This document shows positions 1 to 13,036 of a stretch of DNA of 33,237 nt, piece after piece. Positions within the stretch are counted from its first letter, which is position 1. Every line of letters starts with the position of its first letter. Position numbers and translations under genes: made by a program. Source of the stretch: a bacterium (lineage in GTDB: Bacteria > Verrucomicrobiota > Kiritimatiellia > RFP12 > UBA1067); the NCBI GenBank assembly GCA_963618095.1, contig CAVERN010000002.1, positions 1 to 33,237 on the forward strand, given 5' to 3'. Under the pieces are notes generated by a model, which made no database searches, was not told the DNA's origin, and worked only from the letters and a program-made list of their open reading frames with translations.

Positions 1-366
1 GGCCTCGATGCCGCCGAGGTTCGCCGGCATGTGCAGGGGGCCGAACTTGACGAGCCTCTTCGCCTTCGCCATCACCGACTTCGTGAAGAGCACGGAGTCC
101 TTGAACACCTCCGCGCCGTGGAGGACGCGGTGGCCGATGGCGTCGATCTGGAGAGGTTGAGAGGAAGAGGAGCCGAGGGCGGGGTTGGCCGACAGCTCCG
201 CGACGACCGTCTTCAGGGCCTCGGCGTGGTCCTTCGGGCCGCCGCAGCCGATGCGCTCCACAACGCCCTTGCAGAGCGCCTTCTCGCCCTCCATGTCGAA
301 GAGCTCATACTTGAGGGACGACGACCCCGAATTGACTACGAGAACCTTTCTGATTTTCCTTTTCAT
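1..366 (-). CDS. ackA: Acetate kinase, 5' portion (122 codons; the gene continues beyond the window start)
   Basis: Absent from the ORF track because it runs off the window. Reverse-complement translation from the ATG at 366-364 gives MKRKIRKVLVVNSGSSSLKYELFDMEGEKALCKGVVERIG...QIDAIGHRVLHGAEVFKDSVLF...FGPLHMPANLGGIEA. This carries the acetate/propionate kinase N-terminal signatures (VxNxGSSSLK, GHRVxHGx, PLHxPANL). The ATG lies 4 nt after the giant gene's stop (373-371). Confidence 0.85.
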   Translation of the reverse strand, partial: MKRKIRKVLVVNSGSSSLKYELFDMEGEKALCKGVVERIGCGGPKDHAEALKTVVAELSANPALGSSSSQPLQIDAIGHRVLHGAEVFKDSVLFTKSVMAKAKRLVKFGPLHMPANLGGIEA

Positions 367-370
367 CTTT

Positions 371-3300
371 TCACTGCTCGATTTCAACCTTGAAGAAGCC
401 CCTGGAGGCGTCCAGGCCCAGGTCGGAGAGCGCCTTCGTGAACACGGCGTCCACCGCGCCGTCCTCGACCGCGAACTCAACGGGCTCGCGCACCTCGCTC
501 CACTCGCCGCCGAGCGAGTCGGAGTACTTGACGACGAGCGTCGCCCTGACCTTGCCGTCCGAGACGAACAGCGTGCTGCCGGCGAGCGGGTCCTCCGCCT
601 CGGCGGACATCGCTATCGAGACCACGCCGTCCGCGAGCCCGAGCGACGTCACCGTGAGGGTCGAGCCCTTGATGGACGGCTCCACGGTGTCGACGGCCGA
701 GATGAGGGAGGCGAGGGACGCGCTCATGCGGCGGGAGGCGACGGACGCGAGCTGCACCGGCATTCCGCCGTTGACGAGGTCGGAGATCGCGCTCTCGAGG
801 TTCGGGTTCACCGTGATGTACCCGTTGTTCGCGTTCGTGGAGACGTTCTTCTTCTCGAGGAAGTTCGCCTTGGACGTGCCCGCGACGTCGTACTCGTAGA
901 CGTCAGGCAGGCAGTCCTGGTCGGTGTCGGCGTCCTCCACGTAGACCTTGGCGACGCCGGGGTTGACGCCGTAGCCCAGCGTGACGGCAAGCGGGGTGAA
1001 GATCGTCCCCGACGCCTCGCCGCTCGCGCGGGCGCAGAGGTAGCCCCACGACTCCCACTGGTCCTTCTCGAAGTCGCCGTCGCTGTCGAGATATGCGCGC
1101 ACGTAGTACGTGCCGGCGTCCAGCCCGCGGATGCGGGCGTTGACCGTGCCGTCCACGTTCGTCACGCTCGAGAGGTCTGCCACGAACGCGCGCCCGGCGG
1201 GGTCGCCCGTGAAGTCGGGCGTGGTGAACGCCTCGACGCGCAGGATTCCGGGCGTCTTGGACGAGAGCGCGCTGACGGCGCCCGGGCCGTAGTACTTGAC
1301 CAGCGCCTCGAGCGTGAACTTGCCGGCGGCGTTGACCTCGTCCTCGCCGTAGGCGTTCATGCGGAAGGTCCTCGCGTCGGACCAGCTGTCGGACTGGAAC
1401 TTCGAGTTGTACACCGACACCTGCCAGGTGTAGTTCGCCAGGTTCCTGAACACCGCGCCGAGGGAGGTCTGGTCGTCCACGTAGAGCGGAGGCGTCCACT
1501 CGTACGCGCCCGCGACGTTGCGCGGCGGCAGGCGGCGCTTGCCGGAGTTCCACACCACCTTGCCGGCGGAGTCCTTCACCTGGATCGCGAAGGCGGTGTA
1601 GGTGTCGGGACGGTCGCCCGCGATGCTCCACCTAAACGTCGGACGGGCGCCGTAGAACACGGCCTCCGTCGCCTCGGCCGAGACGGGCACGCCCTTCGCC
1701 TGGGTCCTGCCGAACTCGCGACTGAACTCGATGTACGGACGGCCCGACGGCGTCTTGATCTCCTGGACGACGTTCACCGGCTCGGAGTAGACGCGGTACG
1801 TGACGGACGTCACGGGCGAATAGTTCAGATTCACCTTCTTCATGACCTCGCTCTGGAAGTAGTTCCAGTCGATGTCGAGGTTGCCGTCCGAGAGGAAGTC
1901 GCCCTCGTGCAGGTAGTCGCGGCCGAGCACCTCCTTGCCGGCCACCATGCGGTTCGTCACCGCGGAGACCGTAGCATAGGCGTCGAGCAGATAGCGGTAC
2001 ACGTACACCATGCCGTTCGTCGCGCTCTCGGAGGAGGCGCTGTCGGTCTCGTTCGTGCTCACGAACGAGAGCGTCGGGCGCGAGCAGACCGGGCTCTCCG
2101 CCGTCATCTCAAGCTCGAGCGACGCGCCGCTCCAGCCAACGTCCACGCCGCTGACCACGCCCATCGGCTCGCCATCGGACCAGACGCCGTTCGAGTCGAG
2201 GTCGACGAACGCCACGAACGTGTTCTTGCCCTCGCGCACATGGCCCGAATCCGCTTCGGAGAGCGAGTACTCCCACTCGGACTCGCCCGCGACGCGGATG
2301 CTGTCCCACGTCACCTTCATGTAGCTCTTGGAGAGGTCGATGCGGGAGTACTCGTTGGAGACGCTCGGGCGGTAGAACGTGTAGACGCCGCTGCCGTCGT
2401 CCGAGTCCGACTCGCCGGAGGAGCTGGAGATGTAGTAGGCGTAGCCGGTCAGATCGGAGAGATTCAGCGTCAGCTCGCCGGTCTTGTAGGAGATCGTGCC
2501 CACGGAGTCGTTCAGCTTCACTATGTCGGCGGTCTCGACATTGCCCGCTCGCACGGACTCCACGAGCCCCTGGTGCCATTCCGTCGAGGCGGGATTGAGA
2601 AGCAGGAGGCTCCCGGTTCCGTCATTCTTGCACTCGGTCATGTCCCTGAACAGGATGTTGACCGAACCCGGCACCACGTAGCCCGGGCCGAGGTTGGCCG
2701 TGAGCGTGCCGGTTGCGGGATTCAGCCCGAGCATGCGCTCCATGGACTTCGTCTCCGAGGATCCGGGGATCGTCCAGGTGGCGTCGGCCTTCCTGAGCGA
2801 GGAGTCGGAGTACGCCTTCACCACGATCGGGGCGGAGATGTCCTCGGCGTCCTTGCAGAAGAGCTTCGCCTTGATCATCGGCACGGGATACTCGGCGAGG
2901 GACTCGCCGCCGGCCATGAGCTTGGCGGTGCGGTCGGGCATCGTGCCGGCGCGGCACTCGGCGTAGTTGCTCCAGCCGTCGGCGTCGTTGTCCCGGTGGG
3001 CGTCGTACGCCCCCGCCGTCACGTAGGCGTCGGAGAACCTGTCCTCCCACCAGTCCTCCATGAAGTCGTGGTCGGAGAAGAGCTCGCCGAGATAGAGGCG
3101 GCCCGCCCGGCGGAAGTAGTCGTACTCCTTGCCGTTCGTCATCGGCTTGGTCGGGTCAACCGTGCCGAACTTGAACACCTCGGAGACGAGGTACTCGGCC
3201 CAGTCCGCGAGGCCGTCCATGTCCTGGTCGTTGCGGCCTATTCCGTCAAGGCCGTACATCTTCTGCCACCAGTCCTTCACGCCGTCGCCGTTGGAGTCGG

Positions 3301-6300
3301 CCTTCGACGCGTACGCGGAGTCGACGGCGCCGCTCGGGAGCAGGCCTTCCGCGAGCGCGCGGAGGTAGGCCTCCACCGTCGTGTAGCCGAGGGCCTCCGC
3401 CCAGTCGGGGATGCTGTTGCCGTTCGCGTCCAGCACCTCGCCCGCGGCCGTGGTCTCGGCCCAGGCGTCCATCGCGCCCTGGCCGTCCCAGTAGTCCGTG
3501 CCGCGGCGCGCGAACGCGCCGCCGAGCGGCACGAGGTCGCTCGTGCCCACGAAGTCGCTGCGCAGCTGGAACTCGTAGCGCCTGGCGAGGAAGTCGCCGA
3601 TGCTGGAGGAGGCCGTCACCGCGAGGCGCGGGGCGGTGTAGAGCCGCATGTAGTGGTTGAAGCGGTCGCGGTTGTAGAAGTAGTACGGGTAGGGGTTCGC
3701 CGAGTTCGGGAACTCGTAGCGCTCCGCGTTCTGGAGGCCGGCGAGCACCATGTGGTACGCGGAGGCGACGCCTGCGGCGTGCTCGCTCCAGTACTGGGAG
3801 TCGGCGCACGAGCCGTCCATGAACGGCAGGTGGGCGACGGTGTTGCCGATCCACGGCACTATCGCGTGGTTGAGGTACACCTCGCTCTTCACGCCGCAGC
3901 CGTCCCACCAGCCGACGCGGAGGAAGCTGTCGAGCGTCTTGCCGTTCGGACGGCGCACGTTGTCCATCACCGCCGCCTGGAACCCGGTCGGCTCGGTCAT
4001 CACGCTCGATGCCTCGGCGGCGCCGGGCAGGGTGGTGAACGAGTAGTGCTGGAGCAGCTCCGCGGGGAGGGCGGCGCTGCCGTCTCCGCCGTTGCGCGTC
4101 GCGCCGTTGAGCCAGCGCCTGTACACGCTGTCGCGCAGGGCCGAGACATCGGCGAGGGTGTAGCGCTTGAGGTAGTCGGCGTTGATGTCGGCGGCCGAGC
4201 GGGCGCCGTCCCACACGCGCACCTCGTCGATCCAGCCCCGGAAGAAGGAGCCGTAGTCATCCCAGCTCGTCTCCTCGCCGAGGGTGAAGGCGCCGGCGCC
4301 GAGCGTCTTCGCGCCGAGCACGAACGAGCACGGGAGGGTGCGGTAGCCGATGAACGCCATTGCGGAGAGCCCGGCGTCCTGCAGGATGCCGTCCACGCCG
4401 TTGGCGGGCAGCACGCCCGCGCCGGAGACGGACGCGACCGGGGACATGGAGCCGTTCACGTAGAGCGCCGCCTTGGAGCCGTCGAAGGCGAAGGCCACGT
4501 GGGTCCACTTTCCGTCCTCGAGGGCCGCGCCGGTTGCGCGCACGGACGCGGAGCTGAGCGTGGAGCCCTCGAACTCGCCGTAGAGGCGGCCGGAGGCGTC
4601 GACGCCGATGCGGAAGTTGGCGCGGATCGCGGAGGTCGCGTTGGAGAGCGTGGACGCGCCGTAGTTGCAGACGCGCTCGAGGATCACCGCGTCGGACGCG
4701 GCGCCGTCGGGACGCACCCAGCACTCCACGGTGAACTGCTTGAGGAGGTCCGGCTCGGTGGCCGCGGCGCGGCGGAACTCGCCGTTGCGGGTGGCGGCGG
4801 CGGAGCCGACGCCGTCCACGAGGCCCGGCAGGTAGAGCGCCTGGCGGCAGTCGGGGTCGGTGAAGTCGAGCGGGTCGCTCGTCGCCTCGAGGCCGCGGGT
4901 GAGCTCAGTGGAGTCGCGCCTGAAGTCGTGGTCAGTGTCGAAGCCCTCGTTCTCCTCGAACGCGAACATCCACTCGGAGCTCCTCCCGCCCATGCCGTAG
5001 GCGGCGAGGCGGAGGCTCCACTTCATGTCGTCCCACGGGAAGCCGAAGATGTCCGGATACGAGGTGAGCGGGTCGTAGCCCTCGACCTCCTTGACGTACG
5101 GGTCGGGGTTGTAGTACTGCGAGGTGAAGCTCGCGAAGCTCCCGGACGTGGAGTCGGTCATCCACAGCGGGGTCGGGTCGGTGTGGGTGTACTGCGGCGA
5201 GGTGACGTTCGCCTTGATGGACTCCTCGTCGTTGCGCAGGCCGTCGCCGTCGGCGTCGCACTCCATCGTGCCGATCATCCACGGGTAGCGGATGGCGTCG
5301 AACGCGGGCTGCACGAGGTCGGTCGGCCAGCCGGTCCAGTAGTTGCTCCAGGAGGTGATCTTGCCGTTGTGGATGGAGGCGATCACGTCGTAGCGCAGGT
5401 TCGGGAAGCCGTACTCGTTCTCGCCGGACGGGTCGACCGCGCTTCCGAGCAGCGGGTTGAGGCCGTGGAAGAGCTCGTAGTAGTCGTCCATGCCGTCGTT
5501 GTCGGAGTCCCAGCGGCGCGGGTCGGTGGTGGCGTAGCGCATCGCGCCGTTGACGTAGTACCTCAGCACCGAGGTCGGGAGGAACCCGAGCGGCGGGAGC
5601 ATCACGCGGTAGCCCGCGCCCTCGGACTTCTCGTAGTTCGCGCACGCGCTCTGCCCCTGCGTGTTGAGCCGGAGCGGATCCCACTCGTGCGGCGGCAGGG
5701 TGAAGTAGCCGAGCTCGGAGAAGCGCCAGGTCGACAGGCCCGTGAAGCCGTTCGCGAGGCAGCGCTTGTGGAACGCCTCGCCGTCCCACGCGCTGAACGG
5801 GATGAACTTCACGAACTTCGCGTCAGTGAGGATGCCGTTCTCGGGGCTGGAGAGCGCCTGCACCGTGGACGGGTCGAGGCCCATCAGCGGGGTGGAGGGG
5901 TCGTCGTAGCGGAGGTGGCGCAGGGACTGCACGAGGTACTCCTGGCAGTTGACGAGGCCGTCGTGGTCGAAGTCGAGGCACGGGTCGCCGTTCCAGGTGC
6001 CGTCCATGCCGCCGCGGATCGCGTAGCCCGTCTCGGACACGGCGGACTGCTTGCCGTCGGCCTCCGTGAGGGTCGCGAGGTCGGTCGCGGAGAGGCCGGG
6101 GTCGGTCTCGGGCTTGCCGTCCTTGAACACGATGCCCGCGAACTGGAACTCCCAGGCGTCAGGCAGGAGGTCGCCGTCCGTGTCCACGGTGCAGGGGTTG
6201 AGGCCGCCGCCGCGGAAGCAGGTCGTCGTGCCGTCGAGCGCGTACTTCTCGGCGTTCTCCTCCTTGCCGTAGATGAACGAGAAGGTGCCGCTGTACTCGC

Positions 6301-9300
6301 TGCGGCCGACGTAGAGCGTGTCGCTCCAGCTGGAGCCCTCCGCGTCGTCCTTCACGCCGTCGCCGTCGGTGTCCATGTCGTACGGATTGGTCGGGAAGAA
6401 CTTGTTCCACCAGCCGAGCGTCTTTCCGGGATTGTTCTTCGTGATCGACTCGGCCTCGGGGAAGATCTCCGCCCCGTCCATGTCGAAGCGGTTGGTGTAG
6501 GCGTTGCAGGAATCGACGCCGGCGTACTCGGCGAGGAGCGTGAGCGCGTCCTTGTCGTCCGCCCAGCCGGACGCGAGCGTGGCGTCGTCGTGGTTGTTCG
6601 GGTCGGAGTTGACGTAGAGCTCCCAGCCGTCCGGGATGCCGTCGTAGTCCGTGTCCGCGCCGTGGACGTCGTGCTCCTGCTCAAGCCACTCCCAGTACGA
6701 CACGACCGTGCGGTTCGTGGAGTTGTCGAACGGGGAGACCTCGCTGCGGGCGGCGTACTGCTCGCGCACGAAGGTGACGGGCAGGTTCGGGTAGGTGGTC
6801 GCGGAGGTCATGTACGCGATTGTCGTCGGGGCGCCCTCGGCGACCAGGTACGCGTCGCCGCCATGGAGGAGCGACTCGGTCTCGGAGCGGGAGCCGTCCG
6901 ACCCGATCTTGCGCATCTGCTGGCGGTACTGCATCACGAGGTACTCGTCGCGGGAGGTGTAGGGGGCCGTCCTCACCGCGAGGCCCGCCTCGCCCTTCTG
7001 CGAGGCGCTGGTCACGAGGCCGTTCTCGCTGACGGTCGTCGGCTCCCAGCGCACGTCCACGTAGCCGTTGGCGTTGATGTTCCACGCGACGCGCGGGTCA
7101 AAGCCGTACTGGCTGAACACCTGGTTGTGGACGAGGGTGACCTTGTGCTTCTTCTCGACCTTCGAGACGGCGGGGCGCTCCACGCCGTTCTTGGGGTCGT
7201 CCCTGACCGGGGCCGCGGCGTAGTGCGCGGCGTTCGTGCCGCAGGGCACGTACGTCACGCCGTCGCCGCCGTAGTTGAAGAGAGGCAGCGCCTTCGCCGT
7301 CGACTCCGTCTCGAGCGTGACCGGGTTGCGCCAGGTGAAGCCGCCGGAGGGCCCGACCAGGCCCGCGCCGATCGCCATCACCCTCACCTGCGTCATCTGC
7401 GCGGGCGCGTCGGAGACCGCCGCGACGGGCGTGCCGGCGGGAAGCGTGATGGACTCGCCGAGGTAGAGCGAGCCGTCGTCGTGCTCGTACGTGCCGAAGC
7501 AGGCCGTGTCCACGGCGAGCATGAGCTGCCCAAGCCCGTTCGGGCCGACAAGGGCGGGCTTCGCCGCGCACCACACGTCCTCGGTCTTGGCCCCGGCGAT
7601 CCTCTTGACCAGGTAGTAGGCGGAGGCGACGGTCGCCTCCTCGGCGGCGTCGGAGGTCTCGGCGGCGTTCACCGCCGTGCCGGCGGCGACCGTCACGGGC
7701 TCGAGGTTGGCGAGATAGACGACGTCGCCAATCTTCACCGTCTGGAAGCACTGCGCGTCGGCGGTCAGCGCCGCGCCGTCGTGCTGGGCGGCCTCGACCG
7801 AGTAGTAGACCACGTCGCCGGAGGCGTCGGAGACGGTGAGCCGGTACACGTTCGTGGAGACGGAGACCGGATCGGCGGTGAACGTCGGGGACGTCTTCGT
7901 GGGCAGGGCGAAGATCTCGCCGTTCGAGAACGTGTAGACCGTGAACGTGTCGCCGTCGTACTCGCAGCGCGCCATGAAGTCGCAGTCGGGGTTGTCCGCC
8001 CCGTCCTTCGCGTTGAGCGGGTCGAGGCCGTTCATCACCTCCCAGAGGTCGTTGACGCCGTCGCCGTCGGAATCCCAGTCGACCGGGTTCGTGCCGAGCG
8101 CGAACTCCTCGAGGTCGGTGAGGCCGTCGTTGTCGGTGTCGCGGTCGATGGAGCCCCTCTCGAGCGGGTTGAACGCCGCGGCGATCTCCTCGGGCGCGAT
8201 GCGGGCGGAGGAGGCCGGGGAGGCGATGGAGTACCTGCGGCCCTCGAGCCTGCCCCACACGCCGTTCGTCACCGCGCCGACCTTGGCGTAGTACCAGAAG
8301 TAGTACTCCCAGCCGTCGCTGAAGCCGTCGCCGTCCGTGTCCGCCTTCGCCGGGTTCAGGCGCACGCCGCCCTCCTGCCAGGCCTCGGGCGTCCACTTCG
8401 CCCCGGTCGCCCAGTTCGTCGCGGCGACGTAGTCGGCGGCGGCGACGCCCGTGAGCGAGTTGCCGGCGGACACGAAGTCGGAGAGCAGCGCGTAGCGCTC
8501 CGCCTCGCTGAGGTCGTAGTCGGAGACTCCCGGCTCGTTGAGGCCGCTGTGCATGCCGCGGATCTCGTAGAGGGCGTCGAACGGGACGCCCGGGCCCCAG
8601 TCGAGGGTCGTGGGCTTCAGCGGGTTGGCGGAGCCGGCCGCCGCCGGGAAGAAGTCCAGGTCGCCGTTGTACGCGGAGATGTCCGCGAGGTCCGCGTCCG
8701 AAACCTCGCCCTCGTCGCCCTCGCCGCCCTCGGCGGAGCCGCCGCTGACGATCTCGCAGAGGCGCGCGGTCTCGCCGGCGTCGCTCGTCCAGGTGCGCAC
8801 GGCGTAGGCGTCGGGGATGCCGTCGGCGTTGATGTCGCCCATGTTGTCCGCCACGTACTTCTCGCGGGAGAAGATCGCGAGGGCCATCGTGTCGGGATAG
8901 GTGTACTCGGTCTGCGTGGACGGCAGCGTGATCATCGTCTCGCCCTTCCTGCCCGGCGCGGGCGAGCCGGCGGTCCAGGTGGTCTCGGAGGAGGAGCCGG
9001 ACGACGACGAGGAGGACGACGAGCTGGAGTCGCTGCTCGGCACGTACTTGAACCAGCGGTAGAAGAAGCTGTCGTAGAGGCTGTCGTTCCTGTAGTGCGG
9101 GGCGTCGGTGCCGTCGCCGGTCTCGTTCGGGGCGGAGGACTTGCCCACGGACGTGGACTCGTCCGTCTCGCCGGCGGCGTAGCCCTGGCCGTAGACGGAC
9201 GCGGAGCGGGAGCTCGTGCCGTACGTCCAGGTGTGCCTGAAGGACGTGATGGAGCCGAAGTTGCCGTCCGCCCACACGCGGCCCACGCCGCGGCCGGGCT

Positions 9301-12300
9301 GGGTGAGGTACTTGGCGATCGCGTCGCTGTCAACCGCCGCGACGGAAGGCCCGTACGGATAGAGGAACACGTTCTTGGACGTCTCCACGAAGAACCAGAT
9401 GACCTTGCTGGAGGCTACGTCGCCGTCCTTGTCCGTCGCGGTGATCTTGAGCTTGTTGATGCCGGGCGTCTCGAACCACACGCTGAATATGCCGCTGCTC
9501 TCGTTCGTCACGGTGCCGATCTCGTGGCCGCCGATCACGGCGCACGTCACGAGCAGGTTGGTCGACCCGTGGTTGGAGGCCACGAGGTCGCCGTCTACGT
9601 CGCTCACGCTCCACCTGAAGTTGAAGTGCTCGTTCGGGGCGTACGTCACGCCCATCATGGCGTTCGTCTCCGTGTCCTGCCCCTCGTAGTCGGGGTCGAC
9701 GGTGATCGCGGGCTTGGTGTTCTGGAGGCGGAAGTAGTTCGTGGAGACCGTGTAGAGCTCGTTCCACGGGGTGCCGCTCGGGCTGGCGCCGGTGGACGTC
9801 ACCTTCGCGACCAGGCGGTAGAGCTGCGGCTTCTTGACGAGCCCGCGGCCGAGGTAGGTGCCGTCGAAGCCGACGAACGCGAAGCTGTTGGAGTAGGCGT
9901 TGCGCGTGAACTTGAACTCCCTCTTCGAGATCTCGGGCGCGACGTCCGTGTCCGCCGCAGCCGGCGCGTAGCTGTTGTCGAGGGCCTCAATCGCCACCTC
10001 GACCTGCACGCTGCCGAAGCCCGTTATGTTCGGGCTCGAGTTGAGCCCTACCGAGAAGCCCATCGGCTCGCCGGCGAGGAGGTCGCCCTCGGTGAAGACC
10101 GGCACGCCGTCCGACCCGGAGGTGAACGTGCCGTAGGGATTCGTGTCGACGTACGGGTTCCTGTCGATCTGCAGCTCGAACACGTACGCGTCGCCCCAGT
10201 CGTTGCCGGGGTTGAGCGAGTCGCCCTCCGGGTACGCCGAGACGGCCGTGCCGCTCATGTCGAGGCCCTTCCAGGGGTCGTAGACCCACTTCGCGCCGTC
10301 GTAGTAGAGGTAGTCCGGCTTGTTGCCGCGCATGTCCTTGTCCTGGGCGCGCACGGAGAACTGGTACTCGCCGCAGAAGGCCTCGTCGAGCTGGTCAGTG
10401 CCGAACATGTCCCTCATGTCGAGGGTGCTGTCGAGGCCGACGGTGTAGTACACGAGGTTCGGCTTCTCGGGGTACTTCCCGCTGTCGTCCTTCTGGCGGA
10501 CCTCCCAGGAGTAGACGACCTGGGCGGCGTCCGCGCCCGCCTTGTCGGCGTCCACGTCGGAGAGCTGGCTCACGCGGAACGTGCGCATCGGGTCGCTCAG
10601 GCTCATCACGATCCTATCGGTCGCGAGCTTGTCCTGGGCGGTCGCGTTGTTCCTGGCGCGGACCTCGGTTATCACGGGGAAGTTGTTCGTGACGTCGATC
10701 ACGAGCGTGTTCTCGGTGAACTCCGTGATGCGGCTGGCGGGATTCCAGACCTCCGAGGAGCAGAGCTTTATGTTGTAGACGAAGTGGCCGGAGTCGTTGT
10801 CGTAGAACCTGAGGCCGTTCCCGCTCGTGAGCGCGTCGGAGACCGCCGCGAGCGCCCCGCTCGAGAACGGAACGCCCCGGCCCGCGGAGCCGCGCGCCGC
10901 CTCGTCGACGGTGTTCGTGGTGAAGAACGCGGCGTAGGAGAGGTTCCTCGCGGCGTCGTTCGCGGGCTCGAGGTAGGCGTAGAGGGAGCTCGCGCTCGCC
11001 GTCTCGGAGAGCGTGAACGTCACGCTCTGCACGCCGCCCTCGCCGACGATCGGGGCCGAGATCGCCGCGGACACGTTCTTGGGCTGCCTGACGTAGACGT
11101 AGAACGCGCGCTCGGACGTGCGGCCGTCGGAGTTCGTCACCTTGATGGTGGTGTTCATGTTCTGGTCGGCCGAGGGGACGGGATACGACACCGGCACGTA
11201 GAGGACGCCGTCCTCGTCCGGCACGAGCGGATTGCCGTCCGCGTCCCTGTCAATCACGATCTTGGCGCCGCCCTCGTACTGCCACGTCACCTTGAAGGCG
11301 CCGTTCGTGCCGTCCAGCCCGAACATGTTGCGGTACGTGTCGCTGACGCGCACCTCGAAGACCGTCTCCACGCCGCCGCGGATCGAGAGGGCGGAGTTCG
11401 TGGCGGACGAGGCGATGTCCGCCGGGGCGTAGCCGTTCACGCTGACGATCTCGGGCTTCGTGCCGTACACCGTGAGGGTGAGGGGCTTGACGGTGAAGTA
11501 CGCGGCCATCGCCGGGTCGTCGAAGTACGGGGTGACCACGATCCTGTCGCCCTTCACGCCGGAGGTGAGCGCTCCGAGGGCGTACAGGGCCTTCGGGTTC
11601 GCGGGGTCCTCGGTCGACTCGGTCTCGCCGGACGGTATCGTCACGGAGAGCGGAAGGCCGTCCGTGTAGCCGCCCTCCTGGCTGGCCGAGATGGCGATCA
11701 GGCCGTCGGGGATCGCCTCCTCGCCGTTCACCTCGTACTTGAGCTTGACCTCTACCGGGTCGTCGGCGGTCCAGGCCTGCGTGAGCTCGACCTTGAACGG
11801 AATGGTGTTCGTGTAGTCGGAGGTCGCGTTGATCGTGCACGCGGAGGCGCCGTTGGCGAGCACGGTGACGGTCGGGGCGAGCGGATCGAGGCACGCGACG
11901 GTGCGGGAGACGAAGTTCGTGATCGTCCTGCCGCTCGCGCTCGTTATGTTCGTGAGGGTGGAGGAGAGGAAGAGCTCGGTGGAGGTGCCCCTCGTCACGC
12001 CGCGGAGGCGGAACTGGAGGCTCGCGTCGCTGCCGTCGATCGTGAGCTTGAGCACGCGGGTGGAGCCCACCACGTACTGCGCGTCGGGAAGCACCACGGA
12101 GTTGGTGTCGGCGGTCCAGAGGTACACGGACCCGCTGTAGTCGCCGGCGAGCTCGCCGGGGATCGCGAGCGAGGGCACGAACTCCTTCGTGCTCGTGGAG
12201 CGCTCGTGCACGGCGCGCCAGACGGGGTTGCCGGCGGCGTCGCTCTCTGCGTTGGAGTCGAAGTCGATGGACTTGACGAAGATGCCGGCGTTGAAGAGCG

Positions 12301-13036: not shown

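Follow-up and report, generated by a model that had tools for sequence, protein, structure and literature searches.

The window analysed here is the whole of a 33,237-bp contig (CAVERN010000002.1) from a Kiritimatiellia metagenome-assembled genome (MAG; GCA_963618095.1), which is fragmented (1.69 Mb in 202 contigs) and about 80% complete. The real genes of the contig are all on the minus strand, and the one under study (371-13036) encodes a protein of 4,221 amino acids (aa) and ~450 kDa, which we refer to as the giant. Its open reading frame (ORF) is open over 371-13135, with an ATG at nucleotide (nt) 13036 and a stop codon at 371-373. A preliminary description of this DNA had stated that the reading frame is intact over 12.7 kb, and this holds, as 371-13036 is open and the GC content of the three codon positions is 0.59, 0.48, and 0.97. 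An overlapping plus-strand ORF of 4,427 aa (185-13468) has values of 0.95, 0.49, and 0.60 and an aberrant composition dominated by Val, Ala, Arg, and Gly. Because of these codon-position values and this composition, we consider the minus-strand ORF to be the real gene and reject the plus-strand ORF as its antisense GC shadow; it is an artefact of the 68% GC content that gene finders could miscall. An alternative start is available at Met7 (nt 13018), and as this is the Met that is invariant among homologs, the true start may lie 18 nt downstream. The gene is present in one copy in its own genome, where it takes up ~0.75% of the 1.7-Mb assembly. The protein is strongly acidic, with 570 Asp and Glu residues versus 314 Lys and Arg and a net charge of about -256 (family median -259), and its sole hydrophobic segment is a Sec-type signal peptide, MKKGASMKNTALGFIAAAMAFVANISLA, at the N-terminus (12953-13036, aa 1-28).

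Directly upstream on the same strand is a gene for a small lipoprotein of 121 aa (13033-13398), with the lipobox LSG/C, an RMxDPxY motif, and a body rich in Ala, Arg, Lys, and Glu. Its TGA overlaps the ATG of the giant (ATGA), and its own start overlaps the stop of a C10 protease gene. This arrangement is widespread among relatives of the giant, as an ORF of ~110-190 aa ends at the start of the giant at each of the 69 loci that have enough upstream DNA, and 60 of 64 non-redundant upstream small ORFs have a lipobox. By sequence inspection, three of the four without a scored lipobox have a transmembrane-like N-terminal helix, and the other has a Cys-rich segment that the pattern missed. The RMxDPxY motif is conserved in the mature lipoprotein, and the Ala/Arg/Lys/Glu-rich body is presumably helical. 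A hidden Markov model (HMM) of the lipoprotein was applied to 12 distant genomes of the same family or order in which all other synteny is lost, and in 10 of them it detected the ORF immediately upstream of the giant; five of eight class-level relatives have, by inspection, a comparable membrane-tethered, coiled-coil-type ORF in this position. Because the upstream small ORF is kept across these loci and distant genomes, the conserved unit is the lipoprotein-giant gene pair. The lipoprotein is unique in its own genome and has no relatives in Pfam, NCBIfam, or PDB. As it abuts the giant in every informative locus, persists in distant relatives, and is unique in the genome, we consider it a candidate anchor or assembly partner of the giant in trans. 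This bears on the earlier claim that no recognisable membrane or cell-wall anchor is present. In cis the claim stands, as we found no LPXTG, PEP-CTERM, lipobox, autotransporter barrel, or T9SS CTD, no second hydrophobic segment, and no anchor domain in Pfam or NCBIfam; but it overlooked the coupled lipoprotein gene, which is a candidate anchor in trans.

Calcium loops and architecture of the chain

Strict DxDxDG motifs occur 13 times in the giant versus 0.2 expected in shuffles, and full EF-hand-type loops of the form D-x-[DN]-x-[DNS]-x3-[DNSE]-x2-[ED] occur 12 times versus 0.1. A relaxed pattern combined with a conservation filter gives 18 loops (1.7 expected) between aa 1401 and 4037, that is, from nt 8836 down to 928, in good agreement with the ~17 Asp-rich loops that had been described as scattered singly or in pairs from ~8840 down to ~900. 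They are single units, spaced by 20-150 unique residues. The preliminary description had also asked whether these loops correspond to TSP3 or EF-hand-like calcium sites, and several observations indicate that they do. The TSP3_bac family (PF18884) scores 57.4 bits on the giant (cut-off 25), and the chelating loop positions 1, 3, 5, 9, and 12 are ~100% conserved across the family. In AlphaFold2 models the loops sit in the highest-confidence stretches, and of the 15 loops modelled, 13 have a helix that starts precisely at position 9, a geometry that is common to EF-hands and other Dx[DN]xDG contexts (PMC3123361). Together, sequence and models argue that these are true EF-hand or Dx[DN]xDG-type sites and are predicted to bind calcium.

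The models span aa 1961-3160 (from a 68-sequence alignment) and aa 3161-4221 (from a 62-sequence alignment). The first, which covers 1,200 residues of the core, has a mean predicted local distance difference test score (pLDDT) of 81 and a predicted template modelling score (pTM) of 0.86. Coil makes up 62% of it, short helices 23%, and strand 15%, with nearly all of the strands belonging to a LamG sandwich. A pTM of 0.86 over 1,200 residues implies one fixed compact arrangement, and therefore the centre of the giant is predicted to be a single compact body around LamG, at least for the residues modelled. The LamG (Laminin_G_3) jelly-roll lies at 4181-4747 (aa 2764-2952), as identified by both Pfam and Foldseek, which confirms the LamG block that had been placed at 4160-4745. 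Laminin_G_3 (PF13385) matches in two stretches with 80 bits (gathering score 27.6, E 2.6e-22), and the LamG strands are found at core-model residues ~774-983. By Foldseek, this domain resembles the LamG domains of PAPP-A, PTX3, SAP, and neurexin (probability 1.00, E 1e-9 to 1e-5), and it also matches PDB sequences (8sl1 by phmmer, E 2.5e-6; by profile, E 3.4e-11). In Foldseek searches of PDB and BFVD, the core matched only the LamG/pentraxin jelly-roll, over ~230 aligned columns and with query-normalised TM scores of 0.10-0.14, leaving ~950 core residues with no structural match; profile searches of PDB sequences with the core likewise returned LamG proteins only.

The core has two conserved parts. 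Part A (7907-8956, aa 1361-1710) carries calcium loops at aa 1401, 1566, 1633, and 1655 and has TSP3_bac matches, and a profile of aa 1340-1725 found only non-significant matches among PDB sequences, to EF-hand and integrin calcium loops. It is followed by a clade-variable insert (7157-7906, aa 1711-1960) with low occupancy and identity in the family alignment. Part B (2957-7156, aa 1961-3360) contains the LamG jelly-roll and the region modelled as a compact body, with loops at aa 2128, 2222, 2285, 2355, 2510, 2594, 2700, 3203, 3247, 3270, and 3349. On the N-terminal side of the core, the region at 10577-12952 (aa 29-820) is the fastest-evolving part of the protein, and the PKD/Ig-like region at 9029-10579 (aa ~820-1336) includes a clade-variable stretch at aa ~800-1050. 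A run of ten Ser residues (8999-9028, aa 1337-1346) is part of a longer Ser-rich linker from the PKD-like region to the core. The preliminary description had assigned PKD/Ig-like signatures to the first ~1,250 residues. We found this to be correct for aa ~820-1340, as PKD matches were obtained in 11 of 34 family members (aa 820-1345), Big_6 matches weakly in the query, and the profile of aa 820-1345 matches the Ig-like domain of Bap (E 3.6e-5), but not for aa 29-820, for which profile searches detected no family.

The C-terminal quarter (374-2956, aa 3361-4221) begins with a variable stretch and continues with ~7 beta-sandwich modules, with calcium loops at aa 3612, 3984, and 4037. In the second model (aa 3161-4221; pLDDT 82.7, pTM 0.81), ~200 helix and coil residues with four loops complete the core, and the beta-sandwich modules that follow resemble only generic MG/FN3/Ig arrays in Foldseek searches. 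An Ig/FN3-like module resembling the N-terminal domain of Rha78A was matched by Pfam at 1358-1654 (aa 3795-3893). It scores 26.5 bits on the whole protein (cut-off 27.4), 31-32 bits on segments, and is found in 16 of 58 members, which supports the earlier identification of an FN3-like module related to the N-terminal domain of GH78 rhamnosidases. Only this N-terminal Ig-like module matches, as the catalytic (alpha/alpha)6 domain of GH78 is absent and the NCBIfam rhamnosidase model reaches 11.5 bits where 1800 are required. The carboxypeptidase-regulatory-like segment that had also been proposed fared less well: DUF2141 matches weakly at aa ~3930-3992 (E 0.046, 14 of 58 members), and nothing stronger was found. 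The protein ends in a beta domain of ~129 aa (374-760) that finishes with a conserved GFFKV motif, and GFFKV-x-(I/L)-x-x closes nearly all family members (here nt 374-400, aa 4213-4221). A profile of these 129 positions had no other match in the same genome at E <= 10. A C-terminal sorting module common to the C10 protease and the giant was also considered, but it is unsupported (pairwise BLAST E 0.098, with the genome profile search empty).

Two stretches, ~7100-7950 and ~3450-4150, had been called unassignable, and they remain so after our profile and fold searches, which matched them to no family. The first (aa ~1696-1979) corresponds to the clade-variable insert and the second (aa ~2963-3196) to a highly conserved section of the compact core. 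The Pfam searches covered the full-length protein, ten overlapping segments of it, and members of the family, and with Foldseek we compared both models with PDB and the core model with BFVD. For the unassigned regions, neither an enzyme nor a known fold was found in Pfam, NCBIfam, PDB-sequence searches (phmmer and five profiles), or Foldseek searches of PDB and BFVD; the only matches were to LamG, TSP3, PKD/Ig-like, and generic beta-sandwich domains. The possibility raised earlier, that such searches might assign these regions to well-known enzyme families, was therefore not realised. Comparison of the N-terminal and C-terminal profiles with hhalign showed no internal repetition.

A class-restricted family and its gene neighbourhood

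A word-indexed search identified 176 relatives of the giant, nearly all 3,900-7,300 aa long, and the few that have names come from Kiritimatiellae MAGs and are called hypothetical or “LamG domain-containing” proteins. BLAST coverage and a full-length alignment of 22 sequences show collinear conservation from end to end, except for three variable inserts (aa ~800-1050, ~1710-1960, and ~3360-3600), and conservation is highest at aa 1361-1710 and 1961-3360. In a scan of one genome per species, relatives were found in at least 132 genomes, nearly all of gut or rumen Kiritimatiellia. These are MAGs that carry the labels Kiritimatiellae, Lentisphaerae, or Verrucomicrobia and derive from the rumen or from horse, chicken, primate, and human (Hadza, Nepal) guts; a few further bins are obviously misnamed. 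Five loci (L005, L028, L042, L043, and L065) come from genomes titled Limosilactobacillus gorillae, Clostridiales, Faecalibacterium, Gemmiger, or Muribaculaceae, and these are probably mislabelled or chimeric bins. In a phylum-wide sample of 301 genomes, strong matches (E < 1e-60) were present in both other genomes of the window's genus, in 8 of 10 genomes of other genera in the same family, in 18 of 20 genomes of other families in the same order, and in 12 genomes elsewhere in the class; other classes yielded LamG or TSP3 fragments only. When an HMM of the pre-LamG core (aa 1961-2745) was searched against 1.84 billion representatives, 390 clusters (50% identity) matched at E <= 1e-30. The best 150 of these were all giants or giant fragments, with the core at about residue 1,600-2,700 in the near-full-length ones. 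Full-length collinear similarity, the position of the pre-LamG core, and the small lipoprotein gene upstream place the protein encoded in the window within this family. Because of the collinear conservation, the genome distribution, and a core HMM whose best matches are all giants, we conclude from sequence comparison that the giant belongs to an orthologous, class-restricted family and is not a mosaic or shuffled repeat adhesin.

To place this divergence in context, we calculated median identities against one reference locus across 34 loci. The neighbouring genes have medians of 68% for ackA (acetate kinase), 86% for pta, 58% for the PilM-like gene, 40% for the Amuc_1100-like gene, and 41% for the Amuc_1099-like gene, and the giant has medians of 40-42% for the core, 32% for the C-terminus, and 27% for the N-terminus. 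By these figures the giant evolves like an envelope protein, with its N-terminal arm the least constrained part. The view that it evolves as slowly as housekeeping genes was rejected, as the core is far below ackA and pta at the same loci.

Downstream of the giant, the contig ends within ackA (1-366, minus strand), whose ATG lies 4 nt past the TGA of the giant. In relatives this gap is ~100-120 nt (L001, L003) versus 4 nt here (364-373), so the tight coupling of the giant to ackA is specific to this lineage. From the protease gene to ackA, we found no promoter-like or terminator-like site that exceeds chance. Across 83 loci, the downstream order is giant, ackA, pta, SIS/CBS (KpsF-like), Amuc_1102-like, PilM-like, Amuc_1100-like, Amuc_1099-like, and secretin, and it is kept in nearly all of those with enough DNA, down to ~30% identity. 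The last five of these genes are homologous to the “pili-like” Amuc_1098-1102 cluster of Akkermansia (PMC5332112), and the Amuc_1099-like neighbour itself carries TSP3 loops. In the genome studied here, the secretin/PilM cluster is on another contig (C98). A strong functional linkage between the giant and this cluster was initially favoured, but we downgraded it after 20 more distant homologs, including those of three genera of the same family, were found to have none of the genes from ackA to secretin within 20 kb downstream. Because of these homologs, the link to Amuc_1098-1102 is one of clade-level synteny and not proven function.

Upstream of the lipoprotein gene is a Peptidase_C10 (streptopain-like) protein of 1,092 aa (13398-16676, minus strand), which has an acidic, Glu-Pro-rich repeat around aa 978-1005. 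This protease is found beside the giant in one subclade only (27 of 83 loci). The giant may be a substrate that it processes, or the lipoprotein may act as its inhibitor. In clades lacking this protease, a second, unrelated giant ORF occurs directly upstream of the lipoprotein-giant pair (L029:54-9620, L055:44-9253, and L078:953-9577, and also in L039, L041, L045, L060, and L073). It is at least 2,700-3,190 aa long and carries Gly_rich_2, Laminin_G_3, or DUF2341 domains; the idea that it is a paralog of the giant was rejected. Further upstream in the window are addA/addB-like genes, rmuC, a TPR gene, an oxidoreductase gene, recD2, recA, uxaC, and another oxidoreductase gene. Among these is a same-strand run of repair and recombination genes at 16762-30201 (UvrD/AddA-like, PD-(D/E)XK AddB-like, RmuC, RecD2, and RecA), which is broken up by the TPR gene and a GFO/IDH/MocA oxidoreductase gene.

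Proposed function and alternatives

Based on sequence and structure prediction, we propose that the giant is a calcium-dependent, lipoprotein-associated protein of the envelope or cell surface that binds a ligand, a reading to which we give about an even chance of being right. The giant would be exported by Sec and would work with its dedicated small lipoprotein as a two-gene module. The cytoplasm contains little calcium and the gut plenty of it, and after export calcium ions at the dispersed loops would staple the irregular chain into a rigid body. The lipid-anchored, helical partner would tether this body to an envelope membrane or aid its assembly there, and the LamG face and the fast-evolving N-terminal arm may bind a ligand, probably a glycan or another gut surface. 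Several points weigh against this proposal. No outer-membrane translocation route was identified for a protein of 450 kDa, so the giant could reside in the periplasm. Three of the eight class-level relatives have no comparable small ORF upstream. The AlphaFold2 models are ion-free, were built from family-only alignments, and were judged on pLDDT and pTM. Lastly, rather than anchoring the giant, the lipoprotein could serve as its chaperone, inhibitor, or regulator.

Of the alternatives, the most likely is that the giant serves as a structural scaffold of the envelope instead of an adhesin. As an S-layer-like coat, or as a brace that the lipoprotein holds in the periplasm or between the membranes, it would need calcium for assembly and would have no specific external ligand. 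We regard this as unlikely, though less so than the other alternatives. A single-copy gene present in 18 of 20 same-order genomes outside the family and in 10 of 12 within it (genus included) is what a scaffold would predict, as is conservation from end to end, unlike that of typical adhesins, which are patchy. The gene also adjoins, and is possibly co-transcribed with, the housekeeping gene ackA; an outer-membrane export device is not evident; and small helical tethers such as Lpp resemble the lipoprotein partner. The rapid divergence of the N-terminal third (27%) and the clade-variable inserts, however, suit an exposed interaction surface better, and no lattice-forming or peptidoglycan-binding domain was detected with Pfam. 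One generic Foldseek match to an S-layer protein is in favour of a scaffold, but it reflects non-specific similarity to an Ig array (TM ~0.1).

A broader proposal is that the giant and its lipoprotein make up an envelope device that is confined to this lineage and has not been described before. The centre of ~2,000 residues would then be a new architecture, a single large body in which ~15 dispersed EF-hand-type sites around LamG take the place of a regular hydrophobic-core fold, and environmental calcium would switch its assembly or conformation. It might also act with the Amuc_1100-type pilus-like system of the Planctomycetes-Verrucomicrobia-Chlamydiae (PVC) superphylum. We put this forward as a speculative and rather improbable reading.

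The synteny described above suggests a different role, namely that the giant is cargo, a tip adhesin, or an accessory of the Amuc_1098-1102-like secretin/PilM pilus-like system, comparable to PilY1 or MshQ. The fixed order from giant to secretin in nearly all of the informative loci is consistent with this role, as are the TSP3 loops of the Amuc_1099-like neighbour and a core that diverges at the rate of the Amuc_1100 and Amuc_1099 homologs. Nevertheless, the 20 distant homologs do not have the cluster within 20 kb downstream; ackA, pta, and the KpsF-like gene intervene between it and the giant; and in the genome studied here it is on a different contig. The giant also has no PilY1/PilC or MshQ (DUF6701) domain and no prepilin signal, and its compact body seems too large to cross a secretin in a folded state. 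For these reasons we find a role in the pilus-like system doubtful.

The preliminary description had inferred a calcium-rigidified extracellular fibre or adhesin, and this reading, taken as an extended fibre adhesin like the classical giant repeat proteins, is equally doubtful. A fibre would agree with the size and acidic composition of the protein, with its calcium loops, and with the presence of Ig/PKD-like modules towards either end. However, the giant has no tandem repeats of a single module, its N-terminal and C-terminal profiles are mutually unrelated, and neither an RTX signal for type I secretion system (T1SS) export nor an autotransporter barrel was found. The pTM values of the two models indicate fixed compact packing rather than beads on a string. 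The extended shape was thus not borne out for a protein whose central 1,200 residues are modelled as compact and which is non-repetitive and orthologous, not modular.

Finally, the unassigned core might hide a new enzyme that acts on glycans or cleaves proteins, say, with LamG as its carbohydrate-binding module, but we consider this very improbable: the ~950 unmatched core residues, the large number of His, Asp, Glu, Cys, and Trp positions outside the loops that are invariant (as in HxQV..GFDPR, CxRGGGLNPC, THTDPTPLW, and FEENEG), and the fact that Kiritimatiellia are polysaccharide degraders would fit an enzyme, while no catalytic fold was found in Pfam, NCBIfam, PDB-profile, or Foldseek searches, the secondary-structure string of the core, with its coil and short helices, has no recognisable barrel, propeller, or Rossmann unit, and most of the invariant residues are loop Asp and Gly or structural Trp and Pro.

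Kiritimatiellia are common in human, primate, ruminant, horse, and bird gut communities and almost uncultured, and our literature searches found no paper on the giant family. Given the large share of the genome that the gene takes up, its single copy across the order, and the lack of a characterised relative, the giant is probably central to building or using the cell surface of these bacteria. The family lends itself to studying how a very large non-repetitive polypeptide may be organised by dozens of isolated EF-hand-type sites, the lipoprotein and giant provide a defined two-gene module, and the family could also offer a handle on the poorly understood Amuc_1098-1102-type cluster of Akkermansia. 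If the giant is merely another calcium-dependent adhesin, the value of this work is mainly in better annotation of several hundred giants now listed as “hypothetical” or “LamG domain” proteins.

Comparison with known systems

The giant falls within a familiar kind of protein, the giant calcium-binding bacterial surface protein. What sets it apart, as judged from sequence and models, is a predicted non-repetitive compact core with dispersed EF-hand sites and no PDB counterpart beyond LamG, together with an apparently obligate lipoprotein partner gene. Within this kind, the LapA, SiiE, and MpIBP-type RTX/BIg adhesins share with the giant a length of more than 4,000 residues, an acidic composition, Ig-like modules, and, as predicted for the giant, calcium binding and a lectin-type ligand-binding region. 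In contrast to them, the giant has an N-terminal Sec signal peptide instead of a C-terminal T1SS/RTX signal, and neither GGxGxD nonapeptides (motif scan) nor HemolysinCabind (Pfam) were found in it. It also differs in having no tandem identical repeats, in its compact core, and in being a conserved ortholog and not an accessory gene.

PilY1 is a large, Sec-exported, calcium-binding protein and MshQ contains LamG, and both are encoded near pilus or secretin genes. Pfam found neither the C-terminal beta-propeller of PilY1 (Neisseria_PilC) nor DUF6701 of MshQ in the giant, and the synteny of the giant with the secretin cluster differs from theirs in being clade-limited, with ackA, pta, and the SIS gene in between. 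CglD and MtsD of Myxococcus xanthus (NF033765, NF047639) are, like the giant, bacterial envelope proteins with TSP3_bac loops. No NCBIfam models other than theirs touch the giant, which they match over ~60-120 loop residues and with 29-31 bits against cut-offs of 400-800, but the giant lacks their VWA domain, is four times larger, and has an unrelated architecture. The LamG (LNS) domains of PAPP-A, pentraxins, and neurexin are the counterparts of the only part of the giant that has relatives of solved structure, and this likeness is confined to ~230 residues.

The closest analogue by logic is the signature domain of thrombospondin, in the sense of an analogy and not of membership. In this C-terminal domain, a calcium-binding type-3 “wire” is combined with a lectin-like module, and its conformation is calcium-dependent (PMC2781399). 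Thrombospondin is extracellular and, as predicted for the giant, has many Asp-rich DxDxDG-type sites in an irregular chain that is packed with a concanavalin-A-like beta-sandwich. No thrombospondin structure was among the top 50 Foldseek matches or the top PDB-profile matches of the giant, and the two differ in several respects. Thrombospondin has EGF modules, for which the giant has no Pfam matches, and the body of the giant is ~5 times larger. The L-lectin-like module of thrombospondin is C-terminal, whereas the Laminin_G_3/pentraxin-like sandwich of the giant is in mid-chain. Finally, thrombospondin has its calcium sites in a contiguous array of 13 repeats, while those of the giant are dispersed along the chain as single EF-hand-like units.

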